Virus record (IMG/VR): IMGVR_UViG_2609459800_000001
Direction: 5' to 3' (one strand)
Source of the DNA: a virus
Taxonomy: Duplodnaviria; Heunggongvirae; Uroviricota; Caudoviricetes
DNA length: 64,000 nt
Both the position numbers and the translations under genes were made by a program. The notes under the pieces were generated by a model that was not told where the DNA came from, searched no databases, and was given only the letters and a program-made list of their open reading frames with translations. This document shows positions 23,851-31,287 of this stretch, one piece after another; the first letter of the stretch is position 1; each line of letters opens with the position of its first letter.

Positions 23851-25044
23851 GTGACCTGGGACGATCACAAGAAGAATTTTGCTCGCCTGGCGCGAGATGG
23901 TGGTTACACCATCGCACAGTATGCCGCCGAGTTTAATCTTAACCCTAATACCGCACGTCGTTATCTCCGTGCCTTCAAAGAAGACACCAGGACAGCGGAC
24001 AGCCGCAAGCCAAATAAGCCTGTCAGGAAACCACTAAAAAGCATGATCATTGATCACGCTAATGATCAACGTGCAGGTGATCACATTGTGGCTGAAATGG
24101 CTGAAAAACAAAGAGTTAATGCTGTTGTCAGTGCCGCACTCGAGAACGCGAAGCGCCAAAATAAGCGCATAAATGATCGTTCTGATGATCATGACGTGAT
24201 CACCCGCGCCCACCGGACCTTACGTGATCGCCTGGAACGCGACACCCTGGATGATGATGGTGAACGCTTTGAATTCGAAGTTGGCGATTACCTGATAGAT
24301 AACGTTGAAGCGCGGAAGGCCGCGCGCGCTATGTTGCGTCGGTCCGGGGCCGATGTTCTGGAAACCACTCTTCTGGAAAAGTCTCTTTCTCATCTCATTA
24401 TGCTGGAGAACGCCAGGGATACGTGTATTCGCCTGGTGCAGGAAATGCGCGATCAGCAAAAAGACGATGATGAAGGTACTCCGCCTGAATACCGTATCGC
24501 GAGCATGCTAAACAGCTGTTCCGCGCAGATAAGCAGTCTGATCAACACCATTTACAGCATCCGGAATAACTATCGAAAAGAAAGCCGGGAGGCGGAAAAG
24601 CACGCTTTATCTATGGGGCAAGCTGGCATTGTTAAGCTGGCATACGAACGAAAGCGTGAAAATAACTGGTCAGTGCTGGAAGCGGCTGAATTCATCGAGG
24701 CGCATGGAGGAAAAGTGCCTCCCCTGATGCTGGAGCAAATCAAAGCCGATCTGCGTGCTCCTAAGACCAATACCGATGATGAGGAAAACCAAACAGCATC
24801 TGGCGCTCCATCACTTGAAGATCTGGATAAAATCGCGCGAGAACGGGCCGCCAGCCGCCGCGCTGATGCCGCATTGTGGATTGAGCATCGTAGAGAAGAA
24901 ATTGCCGATATCGTCGATACAGGTGGTTATGGTGATGTCGATGCGGAAGGCATATCAAACGAAGCATGGCTTGAACAGGATCTGGACGAAGACGAGGAGG
25001 AAGACGAAGAAGTTACCCGCAAACTGTACGGGGATGATGATTAA
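23851..25044 (+). CDS. pacA: terminase small subunit (pacase)
   Basis: 397 aa; contains hexamer pac site; acidic C-terminus; GTG start. Confidence 0.8.
24044..24202 (+). other. pac packaging site (two clusters of TGATCA/TGATCG hexamers: 4 + 3)
   Basis: Hexamers at 24044, 24051, 24063, 24078 and 24174, 24187, 24197, each containing a Dam GATC. Confidence 0.75.
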
Positions 25045-26528
25045 TGGCCAGAAGTTGCGTAACGGACCCACGTTGGCGCGAGCTGGTGGCGCTATATCGT
25101 TATGACTGGATTGCGGCCGCTGATGTGTTGTTTGGGAAGACACCAACCTGGCAGCAGGATGAGATCATTGAGTCCACGCAGCAGGACGGCAGTTGGACAA
25201 GTGTGACCTCCGGCCATGGTACTGGTAAATCGGATATGACGAGTATCATTGCAATACTCTTCATCATGTTTTTCCCCGGCGCTCGCGTCATTCTGGTCGC
25301 TAACAAAAGACAGCAAGTCCTTGATGGTATTTTCAAATACATAAAGAGCAATTGGGCTACTGCTGTTAGCAGATTCCCGTGGTTGTCGAAGTATTTCATT
25401 CTTACAGAAACGTCTTTTTTTGAGGTGACTGGCAAGGGTGTTTGGACAATATTGATAAAGTCCTGTCGCCCCGGGAATGAGGAGGCGTTGGCTGGTGAAC
25501 ACGCCGATCATCTCTTGTATATCATCGACGAAGCGTCGGGTGTGAGTGATAAAGCATTCAGTGTGATAACAGGTGCGCTGACCGGTAAGGATAACCGTAT
25601 TCTGCTTCTTTCCCAGCCTACGCGACCTTCAGGCTATTTCTACGATTCACACCACAGACTAGCTATTCGCCCGGGAAATCCTGATGGATTGTTTACTGCG
25701 ATAATACTGAATAGTGAAGAATCTCCGCTTGTAGATGCAAAATTTATACGAGCAAAACTTGCGGAGTATGGCGGTCGTGATAACCCCATGTACATGATCA
25801 AAGTACGTGGTGAATTTCCCAAATCTCAAGATGGCTTTCTTCTTGGTCGTGATGAGGTTGAGCGGGCGACGCGGCGAAAGGTCAAGATTGCCAAAGGATG
25901 GGGCTGGGTTGCATGTGTTGACGTTGCTGGTGGCACAGGACGAGATAAGTCCGTTATTAATATCATGATGGTGTCCGGCCAGCGAAATAAACGCCGTGTA
26001 ATCAACTATCGTATGCTGGAATACACAGACGTTACAGAAACGCAGTTAGCCGCCAAGATTTTCGCAGAATGTAACCCAGAACGGTTCCCGAACATAACCA
26101 TAGCTATTGATGGCGATGGCTTGGGGAAATCGACGGCTGATCTAATGTACGAACGCTATGGCATTACCGTCCAGCGTATCCGCTGGGGTAAAAAGATGCA
26201 CAGCCGTGAAGATAAAAGCCTTTATTTCGATATGCGCGCTTTCGCGAATATTCAGGCGGCAGAAGCTGTAAAATCAGGGCGTATGAGGCTTGATAAGGGG
26301 GCTGCGACTATAGAGGAAGCATCAAAGATACCGGTAGGGATAAATTCCGCAGGTCAATGGAAGGTGATGTCAAAGGAAGATATGAAGAAAAAACTCAACC
26401 TGCACTCACCGGACCATTGGGATACATATTGTTTCGCTATGTTGGCGAACTATGTTCCCCAGGATGAAGTGCTTAGCGTCGAAGACGAAGCGCAGGTTGA
26501 TGAAGCTCTGTCATGGCTTAATGAATGA
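25044..26528 (+). CDS. pacB: terminase large subunit
   Basis: 494 aa; Walker A-like [13 protein letters not shown] Walker B-like; overlaps pacA stop. Confidence 0.85.
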
Positions 26529-26680
26529 ACATTTGCTCTAATGAATTGTGTTTTTTAACTACCGATGTTACATTGAACCTGACCTCTTGCGCCTTGAGGC
26601 ATTTTCGGTTTATGCTTATCAGGCACCTCATTAAAACGGGTGCCGGGATTGAGACCCCGGATAATGCAAAAGGCGACACA

Positions 26681-26702
26681 GACGCCAAAAGCGTCTTTTT
26701 TT
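26681..26702 (+). terminator. intrinsic terminator after pacB
   Basis: GACGC-caaaa-GCGTC followed by TTTTTTT. Confidence 0.55.
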
Positions 26703-26729
26703 GTGTCATGCCATCGCACAGCCATACGT

Positions 26730-26845
26730 AGCGTTTAGCTCAGAGATCAATGGTAGTGCTGGCTGGGCTGCCGAAAGGCAGGCCGGTTCCCTTTTGCGCC
26801 GGTAGTCTCAACCCAGTCAGTGCTACCGCCATTGAGATTGAGACC
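26730..26845 (+). ncRNA. candidate structured RNA (c4-like antisense RNA?)
   Basis: Nested stems 26748-26762/26818-26834; GAAA-capped hairpin 26768-26781; TAGCTCAG box 26736-26743. Confidence 0.25.
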
Positions 26846-26887
26846 TCACGCGGTAGCTCCTTAAATTAGCAAAAGGAGGCTGCCATT

Positions 26888-27109
26888 GTGGCTACTATCC
26901 CTACCCCAACTCATCCTGAATTTATCTGGCGCTTTTACTCCTGCCAGAAACGTCACTATCACTTCGTTATTGCACCGACAGAAGATGAGGCTCGCTCTCA
27001 GCTTCCGGATGCACCCTGTATTTTCTCTGCCCGCTTTTCTACCGATTCGCGCAATTCTCTCAGTTACTGGAGCCTCCCTGTTAACGCTTCTGCTCAGGAG
27101 GGACTATGA
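26888..27109 (+). CDS. icd-like small ORF (73 aa)
   Basis: GTG start after AAAGGAGG; stop overlaps ant-like ATG (ATGA). Confidence 0.3.
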   Translation: MATIPTPTHPEFIWRFYSCQKRHYHFVIAPTEDEARSQLPDAPCIFSARFSTDSRNSLSYWSLPVNASAQEGL

Positions 27110-28218
27110 GAACGTCATTAGTCACCCGTGAAGAGATGATCGAGGCAATTGAACAGCACACTGCCTGTATCAGTACCAGGGATATACCGGGCGTTATTGC
27201 CAACTACTTCATGATCACCAAACAACTTTACCGGAGAAAGGACAAGAACTCGGTTCACCGCATTCTGCTAACCGATATCCGTGAATACCTGCTCGAACAG
27301 GGTCATCTGAATTACGCAACCGTCGCAGCCGAAGCACGCAAGGAGGCACACAGAATGAAAGCAACTAACGTTAAATCAGAAAAAATTTATGCACCTTCAG
27401 TTCAGGAATCGGAACTGGTGGTTGTTCAGAATCAGCCGGATGAAATTCCCGTTCTGGAATGGCAGGGAGTACGTGTCGTGACAACCGAAACTCTTGCTAG
27501 AGGGTATGGGGTCGATGAAGCCAATATTCGCAACAATTTGTCTCGCAACCTTGACCGCTTTGAAGAAGGTAAGCATTACTTTCTTCTAACTGGTTTAAAA
27601 TTAAGAGAATTTAAGAACAGAGTAACCGGAAGTTACTCTGTTGGTAAGAACGCCAGAAGCCTTACACTCTGGACAGAGCGCGGCGCTGCACGCATGTCTA
27701 AGATCGTGGACACAAATGAAGCATGGGCATTCTTTGAAAAACTGGAAGACAGCTACTTCCGGCAAAAAGAACAGCAACCGGTTGCAATCCCCCAAACATT
27801 ACCAGAAGCCCTACGCCTGGCTGCCGAACTGGCTGAACAAAAGCAGCTTCTGGAACAGAAAGCCCACCAGCTAAATCAGCAGCTGGTGGCCGCCGCTCCT
27901 AAGGTCGATTTTGCCGACCGGGTATCAGTAGCTAAAGGGATCCTGATTGGGAATTTTGCAAAGGTTGTTGGACTTAAGCAAAATGCGCTGTTTGCCTGGT
28001 TACGGGAGAACGGCATCCTGATAGCGTCCGGTGGACGTAAAAATGTGCCGTTCCAGCAGTACATTAACGCCGGGTATTTCACGGTGAAAGAAGTGGTGCT
28101 GGATGATGAAGATGGCTACCAGATACGGTTGACGCCTCAATTAACGGGTAAAGGCCAGCAGTGGTTGACGCGTAAACTGCTCGATGCTGGCTTGTTAAAA
28201 CCGGTGGCAGCTGAATAA
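27106..28218 (+). CDS. phage antirepressor-like protein (KilAC-type C-terminal domain)
   Basis: C-terminal FAKVVGLKQNALFAWLRENGIL...YINAGYFTVKEV resembles Ant/KilAC; internal Met 84 could give a shorter isoform. Confidence 0.65.
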   Translation: MRTSLVTREEMIEAIEQHTACISTRDIPGVIANYFMITKQLYRRKDKNSVHRILLTDIREYLLEQGHLNYATVAAEARKEAHRMKATNVKSEKIYAPSVQESELVVVQNQPDEIPVLEWQGVRVVTTETLARGYGVDEANIRNNLSRNLDRFEEGKHYFLLTGLKLREFKNRVTGSYSVGKNARSLTLWTERGAARMSKIVDTNEAWAFFEKLEDSYFRQKEQQPVAIPQTLPEALRLAAELAEQKQLLEQKAHQLNQQLVAAAPKVDFADRVSVAKGILIGNFAKVVGLKQNALFAWLRENGILIASGGRKNVPFQQYINAGYFTVKEVVLDDEDGYQIRLTPQLTGKGQQWLTRKLLDAGLLKPVAAE

Positions 28219-28225
28219 TGGAAGA

Positions 28226-28250
28226 ATGCCCGGTTGATGCCGGGCATAAT
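28226..28250. terminator. bidirectional hairpin between convergent ant-like gene and c1
   Basis: ATGCCCGG-ttgat-GCCGGGCAT. Confidence 0.4.
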
Positions 28251-29102
28251 TTATTGCGCGCTTTCGGGGTTGTCGTTTACTGGCTGCCCCTTCTTGGTTT
28301 TACGGCTGCGCGTAACTGATGCGGCTGACTTAACCTTTTTCTCTTCGCGAGTGATGGCAATTTGTTTTTTTACATTTTCAATATCTGCCAGGCGATATAT
28401 TTTTGCTTGCGGCCAGCGGTCGCAGATGATCGGTTCTATGGAGTCATAAAGGCTAAATTTTGCTTTTTCGAATTCACCGTTGATGATAATTCCATCACGG
28501 AGAGTTTCATCGCAGATAAACACGCCACACAGTGGCACATGGTAACTAACTGATTTACCATCATTGTAGTTAGGGCTACTGGAAATGTAGTGGACGCGCA
28601 GCATTGTTTCGCTAAAGCCGTGTACGCGCATACGGAATTTTTCATCCTCCGGGTACTGCCTCATTAGCTCTTTTGTTGCTTCCAGGTTCTCTATGTATTT
28701 CGCACTGTGCTCATTGATCCCCGCGCTTTTTTGGATGCGAATGTCCTTATCAATCAGATGAATAATGCGGCCAGCGGTCATGTTGACGCTGTTCACAGCT
28801 TCTGTCTGATAAGTTGTAACCTTGCGCACACCGCGAAGGATGTTAGGCACTGGATATAAAATAGTCTTTGGGATATTGAGGTCTGGGTACTGTTCCAGTT
28901 CCCGCGCCATTAAAGTCCATTTATCAATTTCAGCCTGAATGCTGTCAGTTTCTTTGAACGGTAGAACGACAACCGGGCGTACAGGACGACCGTCGCTGGC
29001 TGTATCAACGTGTTGGGCGCGTGCAACAGCTTTTTTTAGAAAGAGATCCCTGAAGCTGACGAACTCCTGGTACAGTTGTTCGCCGTAGACATAATTTATC
29101 AT
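28251..29102 (-). CDS. c1: C1 repressor of lysis
   Basis: 283 aa; sequence matches P1 C1 as recalled (MINYVYGEQLYQEF...NDNPESAQ). Confidence 0.9.
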   Translation of the reverse strand: MINYVYGEQLYQEFVSFRDLFLKKAVARAQHVDTASDGRPVRPVVVLPFKETDSIQAEIDKWTLMARELEQYPDLNIPKTILYPVPNILRGVRKVTTYQTEAVNSVNMTAGRIIHLIDKDIRIQKSAGINEHSAKYIENLEATKELMRQYPEDEKFRMRVHGFSETMLRVHYISSSPNYNDGKSVSYHVPLCGVFICDETLRDGIIINGEFEKAKFSLYDSIEPIICDRWPQAKIYRLADIENVKKQIAITREEKKVKSAASVTRSRKTKKGQPVNDNPESAQ

Positions 29103-30255: not shown

Positions 30256-31287
30256 ATGTCTAATTTACTGACCGTACACCAAAATTTGCCTGCATTACCG
30301 GTCGATGCAACGAGTGATGAGGTTCGCAAGAACCTGATGGACATGTTCAGGGATCGCCAGGCGTTTTCTGAGCATACCTGGAAAATGCTTCTGTCCGTTT
30401 GCCGGTCGTGGGCGGCATGGTGCAAGTTGAATAACCGGAAGTGGTTTCCCGCAGAACCTGAAGATGTTCGCGATTATCTTCTATATCTTCAGGCGCGCGG
30501 TCTGGCAGTGAAAACTATCCAGCAACATTTGGGCCAGCTAAATATGCTTCATCGTCGGTCCGGGCTGCCACGACCAAGTGACAGCAATGCTGTTTCACTG
30601 GTCATGCGACGGATCCGAAAAGAAAACGTTGATGCCGGTGAGCGTGCAAAACAGGCGCTGGCGTTCGAACGCACTGATTTCGACCAGGTTCGTTCACTCA
30701 TGGAAAATAGCGATCGCTGCCAGGATATACGTAATCTGGCATTTCTGGGGATTGCTTATAACACCCTGTTACGTATAGCCGAAATTTCTAGGATCAGAGT
30801 TAAAGATATCTCACGTACTGACGGTGGGAGAATGTTAATCCATATTGGCAGAACGAAAACGCTGGTTAGCACCGCTGGTGTAGAGAAGGCACTTAGTCTG
30901 GGGGTAACTAAACTGGTTGAGCGATGGATTTCTGTCTCTGGTGTGGCTGATGATCCGAATAACTTCTTGTTTTGCCGTGTCAGAAAAAATGGTGTTGCCG
31001 CGCCATCTGCCACCAGCCAGCTATCAACTCGCGCCCTGGAAGGGATTTTTGAAGCAACTCACCGATTGATTTACGGGGCTAAGGATGACTCTGGCCAGAG
31101 GTACCTGGCCTGGTCTGGACACAGTGCCCGTGTCGGAGCCGCGCGAGATATGGCCCGTGCCGGAGTTTCAATACCGGAGATCATGCAAGCTGGTGGCTGG
31201 ACCAACGTAAATATTGTCATGAACTATATCCGTAACCTGGATAGTGAAACAGGGGCAATGGTGCGCCTGCTGGAAGATGGCGATTAG
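30256..31287 (+). CDS. cre: Cre tyrosine recombinase
   Basis: 343 aa, essentially identical to P1 Cre as recalled; loxP 419 bp upstream. Confidence 0.97.
   Translation: MSNLLTVHQNLPALPVDATSDEVRKNLMDMFRDRQAFSEHTWKMLLSVCRSWAAWCKLNNRKWFPAEPEDVRDYLLYLQARGLAVKTIQQHLGQLNMLHRRSGLPRPSDSNAVSLVMRRIRKENVDAGERAKQALAFERTDFDQVRSLMENSDRCQDIRNLAFLGIAYNTLLRIAEISRIRVKDISRTDGGRMLIHIGRTKTLVSTAGVEKALSLGVTKLVERWISVSGVADDPNNFLFCRVRKNGVAAPSATSQLSTRALEGIFEATHRLIYGAKDDSGQRYLAWSGHSARVGAARDMARAGVSIPEIMQAGGWTNVNIVMNYIRNLDSETGAMVRLLEDGD

Follow-up and report, generated by a model that had tools for sequence, protein, structure and literature searches.

Why should a P1-like phage-plasmid carry, directly beside its c1 repressor gene, a block that resembles an immunity-I (immI) locus, when the immI of phage P1 lies elsewhere in the genome? 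The question arises from a viral stretch of 64,000 nucleotides (IMG/VR record IMGVR_UViG_2609459800_000001; the whole of it is called the window here), which is the immC/packaging end of a P1-like phage-plasmid. Between pacB and c1 it holds a block of 1,722 bp (window positions 26529-28250). In reference P1 only 24 bp separate the stop codons of these two genes, so the block is extra relative to P1, and the initial annotation of this DNA was right in placing none of its genes at that position in P1. We read the block as a complete and intact second immunity-I type operon and put the probability of this reading at roughly 0.85. It is a genuine C4-icd-ant (immI) locus and belongs to the D6/IsrK-leader lineage. 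The initial annotation had described an immI-like module here, consisting of a structured RNA, a small open reading frame (ORF) and an antirepressor gene, and all of these elements were found.

When all 64 kb were scanned with Rfam, two matches, C4 and isrK, exceeded the curated thresholds, both of them inside the block. The C4 antisense RNA contains two recognition sequences, a' and b', and the two RNAs are listed here together with the targets of these sequences on the icd-ant mRNA:

26623-26701, + strand: IsrK-type leader RNA (Rfam RF01394, 59 bits against a gathering score of 50, model positions 1-77)
26746-26833, + strand: C4 antisense RNA gene (Rfam RF01695, 75 bits against a gathering score of 45, E = 8e-13, model positions 1-87 of 87)
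26838-26844, + strand: target a2, TTGAGAC, on the icd-ant mRNA; perfect complement of a' (7 nt), co-varying with a' across alleles
26869-26876 (feature row 26869-26879), + strand: target b2, GCAAAAGG; perfect complement of b' (8 nt), co-varying with b' in RCS47 and 673R5

The full-length match to the C4 model supports the c4-type RNA that had been suspected here. Its minimum free energy is -46.4 kcal/mol (z = -5.6), and none of 200 shuffled sequences folds equally well. An outer stem of 17 bp (26751-26767 with 26812-26828) encloses a GAAA-capped hairpin (26768-26781), a second hairpin with a 12-nt loop (26782-26803) and an 8-nt single-stranded joint. Both the nested stems and the GAAA-capped hairpin had been noticed initially; the structure stands, but the coordinates given for the outer pairing (26748-26762 with 26818-26834) were a few bases off. 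By homology to the 77-nt C4 of P1, the mature RNA is predicted to span about 26752-26830 (about 79 nt). The sequence b' (CCTTTTGC, 26790-26797) sits in the 12-nt loop and a' (GTCTCAA, 26805-26811) in the single-stranded joint. Both are perfectly complementary not only to a2 and b2 but also to two sites in the leader, a1 (TTGAGAC, 26649-26655, in a hairpin loop) and b1 (GCAAAAGG, 26666-26673, in a single-stranded linker), whose order and spacing class are those of the annotated a1 and b1 of P1. The target 7-mer and 8-mer occur three times each in the 64 kb, and two occurrences of each are in the module. On the mRNA, b2 overlaps the Shine-Dalgarno sequence of icd (AAGGAGG, 26873-26879), with the GTG start 8 nt beyond; the complementarity between the RNA loops and the icd ribosome-binding region that the initial annotation anticipated is therefore present, and perfect over 7 nt plus 8 nt. 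The leader, for its part, ends in an intrinsic terminator (stem 26680-26696 and a T-run, called by a terminator scan) and also matches the c4-a1b1 model below threshold (22 bits, 26610-26663). This hairpin and T-run (26680-26702) had been taken for the terminator of pacB; it is actually the 3' end of the IsrK-type leader, downstream of the module's own promoter.

Two other features assigned to this region did not withstand inspection. The tRNA-like box TAGCTCAG (26737-26744) belongs to a 21-nt spacer that the 673R5 and Shiga toxin (Stx) phage versions lack, and in the window ARAGORN predicted 0 tRNA genes and Rfam gave no tRNA match. RefSeq, through the Prokaryotic Genome Annotation Pipeline (PGAP), places a 39-amino-acid 'ash family protein' exactly over the C4 gene (26750-26869, + strand), with 29.1 bits against a cut-off of 26 for Pfam PF10554 (Phage_ASH), and the 'orf45' of Gifsy-1 occupies the same position. 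We have rejected it as a gene: between C4 scaffolds its frame varies from 39 to 14 or 31 amino acids or is fused to icd, it has no Shine-Dalgarno sequence, and the stems that it covers covary. The Phage_ASH family seems to consist, at least in part, of an RNA gene read as protein.

How the recognition sequences behave among relatives was examined in 160 related loci from viral contigs, collected with two Icd types as queries, plus P1, P7, D6, JL22, RCS47 and 673R5. Their C4 genes have three nearly invariant scaffolds, with the variation almost wholly in a' and b'. Across the approximately 160 loci there are 16 a'/b' combinations, built from nine b and five a alleles that are freely reassorted. 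A first set comprised 87 instances and 13 combinations; in one representative of each, all four target sites match the loops of their own C4, a few of them through G-U wobbles. In this set C4 pairs over at least 7 bp with its own upstream b, downstream b and upstream a sites in 87/87 instances, and with a2, where G-U wobbles are frequent, in 59/87. For example, RCS47 combines b' CCTTTGAC with GTCAAAGG at both b1 and b2, and the window, JL22 and D6 combine b' CCTTTTGC with GCAAAAGG. This co-variation at three sites is the strongest evidence that the circuit would work by base pairing. The stems change in a similar manner: in the gap-free isrK-type set, to which the count was limited (an alignment of all types with MAFFT shifted the 3' strand of the P1-type sequences by one column), 100% of the cells are paired, nine pairs are changed on both sides and 0 of 500 shuffles reach this value. 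Compensatory changes have been kept in the stems and at all three recognition sites across several alleles, a pattern that takes continuing selection to maintain.

The protein-coding part of the module follows directly downstream of the targets:

26888-27109, + strand: icd-like gene, 73 amino acids, GTG start; 80% identical to P1 Icd and of the same length (NCBIfam phage_ICD_like, 49.8 bits)
27106-28218, + strand: ant1-like antirepressor gene, 370 amino acids; Pfam ORF6N and ANT domains; 57% identical to P1 Ant1
27355-28218, + strand: candidate nested ant2-like start, 287 amino acids; in-frame ATG at codon 84, with AGGAGG 8 nt upstream

The stop of the 73-residue ORF overlaps the start of the 370-residue one by ATGA, exactly as in P1, so what had been described as a small ORF overlapping a larger one is an icd homologue joined to ant. 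The GTG start of icd is replaced by ATG in RCS47 and D6. The candidate ant2 start falls on the same codon as the annotated ant2 of P1. The KilAC-like C-terminal half recognized initially in the larger protein is confirmed by a match to the ANT/KilAC domain (Pfam PF03374) at residues 258-359 (E = 1.5e-31, 109 bits against a cut-off of 25.3). Identity to P1 is distributed very unevenly along the protein: the N-terminal, Ant1-specific part is about 65% identical to P1 Ant1 and the last 145 or so residues about 93% identical to P1 Ant, and between them lies an ORF6N domain (Pfam, residues 116-200), with residues 122-225 being 54% identical to AnrP of Gifsy-1. Judged from these identities, Ant is a mosaic of three parts, with a P1 Ant1-like N terminus, an AnrP-like ORF6N centre and a P1 Ant-like KilAC C terminus.

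Upstream of the leader, the region directly after pacB has putative counterparts of the control elements of P1:

26532-26548, + strand: C1-operator-like box TTTGCTCTAATGAATTG, matching the consensus ATTGCTCTAATAAATTT at 14 of 17 positions (3 mismatches); aligned with Oc4 of P1
26546-26574, + strand: candidate C1-controlled promoter, analogue of P1 P2c4 (formerly P51a); -35 TTGTGT (26546-26551), 17-nt spacer, TGn-extended -10 TACATT (26569-26574)
26587-26616, + strand: leader promoter, analogue of P1 P1c4 (P51b); -35 TTGCGC (26587-26592), 18-nt spacer, -10 TATGCT (26611-26616)

The operator-like box sits directly after the pacB stop and overlaps the -35 of the upstream promoter. It was also found in RCS47 and 673R5, and not in the D6 or Stx contexts. 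Window-wide there are 13 such sites with up to three mismatches (e.g., at 9887, 29661 and 48770), against 0.29 expected by chance; dispersed sites of this kind are as expected for a P1-type genome. The P2c4-like promoter was placed by alignment to the annotated P2c4 of P1 and was not called by a consensus scan. The sigma-70 scan gave no call for the leader promoter either, and for this reason it was placed via the P1 alignment and its conservation across contexts: its boxes keep their positions in P1-like, D6 and Stx-phage sequences, where the D6 and Stx upstream sequences are otherwise unrelated. The start predicted from it, near 26623, falls exactly where the isrK match begins (model position 1). 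An ORF of 68 amino acids (26525-26731, + strand), annotated in JL22 as the hypothetical gp120, overlies the operator, both promoters and the leader; it matches no family and is unlikely to be a gene.

In the P1 record the annotated elements run Oc4, P2c4, P1c4, a1, b1, c4, a2, b2, icd, ant1 and the nested ant2, and each has a counterpart here (for Oc4 a candidate one), in the same order and with the same logic. The differences are nevertheless considerable. The module lies between pacB and c1 and not from sim to kilA-repL as in P1-type immI (the position is not part of the mechanism), its leader scores as isrK and that of P1 as c4-a1b1, its C4 scaffold differs in the stems, the code is TTGAGAC/GCAAAAGG instead of TTGACAG/GTTAGTG, and the centre of Ant is an ORF6N domain. 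In P1 the c4 RNA represses Ant synthesis (PMC8546580), and small differences in immI make P1 and P7 heteroimmune (PMC6906374). The RNA part resembles the immI of phage D6, which is 90-96% identical over the leader, C4 and the 5' part of icd and has the same a'/b' code and the same four targets. Unlike here, the antirepressor of D6 is an unrelated Rha-family protein, and its module, the only D6 copy that we have seen, adjoins ref.

A second relative is the isrK - orf45/STnc1160 - anrP locus of the Salmonella prophage Gifsy-1, in which a terminated IsrK-family leader likewise precedes a C4-family RNA and, after it, a translationally coupled gene for an antirepressor that shares its ORF6N core with the module Ant. 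An Rfam scan of Gifsy-1 (L172 34131-34329, - strand) gave isrK with 79 bits, an overlapping c4-a1b1 with 48 bits and then C4 with 69 bits, the last exactly at 'orf45/STnc1160'; an antirepressor-like gene and then isrJ follow. This order of matches suggests that the IsrK locus is a C4-type circuit with IsrK as its a1/b1 leader. Along the same lines, the leader of P1 itself (L004 1731-1812) matches c4-a1b1 with 51 bits and isrK with 35 bits. IsrK, the c4-a1b1 motif and the a1/b1 leader of P1 thus look, by these scores, like one element filed under two Rfam families of different clans. In Gifsy-1 the terminated IsrK leader raises translation of the coupled anrP more than 100-fold in trans, and AnrP induces the prophage (PMC4825925); the a1/b1 leader of the module may, by analogy with this trans-activation, be a decoy for C4. 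Gifsy-1 differs in lacking icd (its small coupled ORF overlaps the C4-like RNA, whereas here the coupled ORF is icd), in its place downstream of the Q-like antiterminator gene antQ in a lambdoid prophage, where the module has pacB upstream, and in an AnrP without the KilAC and Ant1 N-terminal parts.

More distant cassettes keep only the RNAs. An isrK and C4 pair about 69% identical to ours, in the same order, precedes a Rha-like regulator gene in over 100 lambdoid phages, Stx-converting ones among them, and the pair also occurs in APSE (PMC7313666). Unlike the module, these cassettes have no icd and no P1-type Ant, and the downstream regulator is Rha-like or BRO-like. The seqA - CI RNA - seqC arrangement of P4, likened here by description only, also places a processed antisense RNA between upstream and downstream complementary sites. 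The Gifsy-1 authors regard P4 immunity as a structural homologue of IsrK, in which CI, unlike antirepressor control, prematurely terminates transcription of the replication genes (PMC4825925).

Homology with P1 immI and with the Gifsy-1 isrK locus suggests the following mechanism. A constitutive promoter and an upstream promoter overlapped by the C1-operator-like box would transcribe the IsrK-type leader, with its decoys a1 and b1 and the intrinsic terminator at its end. Transcripts that read through would contain C4, which would be cut out as a stable antisense RNA of about 79 nt, and its a' and b' would pair with a2 and b2 in the same kind of mRNA. Because b2 overlaps the icd ribosome-binding site, icd would stay untranslated. 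With ant1 presumably coupled to icd in translation (in P1, the untranslated icd mRNA is Rho-terminated), no antirepressor would be made in the lysogen. On entry into a cell without this C4, Ant1 and Ant2 would be made and would antagonise the C1 repressor.

Is the block then the only immI of this genome, moved from the sim-kilA site to beside c1, or a second circuit, these being the two origins that the initial annotation had offered? Escherichia phage JL22 runs collinear with the window between its positions 74.7 kb and 32.3 kb, across the origin, and the module is 99% identical to its JL22 counterpart, with a C4 of 75 bits and a leader that scores as isrK. JL22 also keeps a canonical c4-icd-ant1-kilA-repL block at 43.4 kb, where C4 has 68 bits and the leader scores as Rfam c4-a1b1. 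Among the sampled contigs, in which kilA was located with an N-terminal probe (a full-length one cross-matched the Ant C terminus), isrK-leader modules occupy the pacB-c1 position in 59 loci, and the modules at the canonical site mostly have an a1b1 leader, eight of them having an isrK-type one. All 21 sampled contigs that have a pacB-c1 module plus another include a canonical a1b1-type copy, and the two C4 RNAs of a same-contig pair differ in both a' and b' (21/21 pairs). The predicted b' duplex is worth -12.4 kcal/mol with its own target and -6.1 kcal/mol with the canonical one, a gap as large as that between P1 and P7. No canonical-site code in the sampled relatives equals that of the module (a = TTGAGAC, b = GCAAAAGG), which leads us to expect the module to work independently of the canonical immI, some 45 kb away in close relatives. 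Because JL22 has both modules and the codes differ in every same-contig pair, we favour a second, orthogonal and possibly heteroimmune circuit. Relocation looks improbable to us. It would be compatible with the few plasmid records that show one matching place only, with the loss of the canonical immI from some P1-like elements (pJIE250-3; PMC6906374) and with the end of the window about 11 kb before the canonical site; yet at least two matching places were found in 27 of the 30 best plasmid records, and the module RNA is part of the D6/lambdoid (isrK) lineage and not a moved P1 copy. Several points do weigh against a second immI-type operon as we describe it. That same window end means that the dual-module status here is taken from relatives, the predicted a' duplex energies (a crude method) discriminate weakly between own and foreign targets, the operator-like box has its three mismatches, the boxes of the leader promoter are poor matches to the consensus, and Ant has a central third unrelated to the centre of P1 Ant.

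The strength of the isrK match, the strong intrinsic terminator and the exposure of a1 and b1 in a loop and a linker also suit a logic closer to that of Gifsy-1, in which the terminated leader would act in trans, sequestering C4 or remodelling the read-through mRNA and turning Ant on, so that the module would be an inducible activator switch and not a constitutive lock. The more than 100-fold effect of IsrK on anrP, seen with the same isrK-C4 arrangement, and the resemblance of the P1 leader to isrK (35 bits) point the same way; P1 genetics, on the other hand, shows C4 to be a repressor, and Gifsy-1 has no icd. We regard such a switch as a serious possibility, though somewhat less likely than not, and it would refine the proposed mechanism without excluding it. 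The mosaic structure of Ant bears on what the protein acts upon. With its central third being an ORF6N domain and not the P1 domain, its target could differ from C1, and the AnrP-like core, related to the inducer of Gifsy-1, might act on other prophage repressors or on another target, making the block a cross-talk module. This we consider unlikely, as the flanking parts are so P1-like, a C1-operator-like box lies upstream and c1 itself adjoins the module; moreover, Ant centres of the ORF6N and P1 types have been freely exchanged between the canonical and pacB-c1 sites, which suggests that they are equivalent. Finally, the fact that P1 does without the block, together with the GTG start of icd, could be read as the mark of a non-functional recombination remnant in decay. 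Such a reading has very little to recommend it, given that all ORFs are intact, that hundreds of replicons keep the block at 87-99% identity and that the compensatory changes in stems and recognition sites, in several alleles, contradict decay.

P1 immunity is usually described with one immI locus and two specificities, those of P1 and P7. A broader picture, which we offer tentatively and hold to be rather doubtful as a whole, is that immunity in natural P1-like phage-plasmids rests on a combinatorial RNA code, distributed among two and sometimes three orthogonal C4-icd-ant circuits per genome, with the IsrK-type leader as a trans-acting anti-antisense sponge that sets the threshold. If so, an element with both modules would be immune to more superinfecting relatives and, when invading, could break the C1 immunity of any lysogen that lacks one or the other of its C4 types; the AnrP-like Ant core might also link P1-like plasmids to the induction of lambdoid prophages. 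About half of the sequenced P1-like plasmids, many of them with extended-spectrum beta-lactamase (ESBL) or mcr genes, have this second, independently coded switch beside c1, and it should alter which relatives superinfect, co-reside with or induce each other, hence the spread of resistance phage-plasmids. The locus also joins two separate literatures, with the IsrK small RNA of Salmonella and the a1/b1 leader of P1 seemingly the same kind of element. The 'orf45/STnc1160' of Gifsy-1, in turn, scores as a C4-family RNA. Together these links suggest a role as C4 decoys for the a1/b1 sites, which have long been called 'putative'.

The module is common in natural relatives of P1. In PLSDB, 703 records match the P1 pacB/c1 junction, which is uninterrupted in 314 of them, and 317 carry at least 80% of the module. 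Among complete Escherichia coli genomes it was found in 315 of 5,426, almost always on plasmids; only 27 of 1,134 places are chromosomal, one of them a full-length copy that is 99% identical (NZ_CP135649.1, 4066745-4068466). Its proteins are labelled 'Icd-like protein' and 'phage antirepressor Ant' by PGAP and the antirepressor gene 'ant' in the RCS47 record. The insertion was reported by Venturini 2019 (PMC6906374), and a second c4-icd region is mentioned in work on D6-like plasmids (PMC6799933). In the literature covered, outside which the phage D6 paper (PMC5800970) falls, we found nothing that describes the RNAs of the pacB-c1 block, the recognition code they use or how orthogonal it is. 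The module is thus real but only modestly new, and it extends a known mechanism without overturning it.

Some loci of the sample depart from the general pattern. Eight of them (L038, L044, L079, L081, L084-L087) have an isrK-leader module with the code CCTTTTGC / GTTCCAA at the canonical, kilA-adjacent site, and leader type and map position are therefore not strictly linked. The sole same-contig pair with identical C4 alleles is a tandem duplicate of the pacB-c1 module itself (L014 2863-2943 and 4429-4509), which may be a real duplication or an assembly artefact. One IMG/VR contig of 97 kb (2703718869_000013; L012, L123 and L149) carries three C4-icd-ant modules, each with a different a'/b' code: one between pacB and c1, one at the canonical sim-kilA site and a third beside lysozyme, SSB and Tad2-like genes.

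In the window, the block is flanked by pacA and pacB (the latter at 25044-26528, + strand) on one side and by c1 (28251-29102, - strand), coi and cre (30256-31287, + strand) on the other. Its right end is closed by one more feature:

28226-28247, + strand: hairpin terminator after ant, from the terminator scan; 9-bp stem with six GC pairs, directly preceding the stop of the convergent c1 (28251)

Aligned at the junctions, the module and P1 have only short strings in common. The 24-bp spacer of P1 (L005 3708-3731) shares ATGCCGG with the terminal hairpin region of the module (28226-28250) and CATT with its left edge, a hint of possible loss from P1 as opposed to gain by the others.

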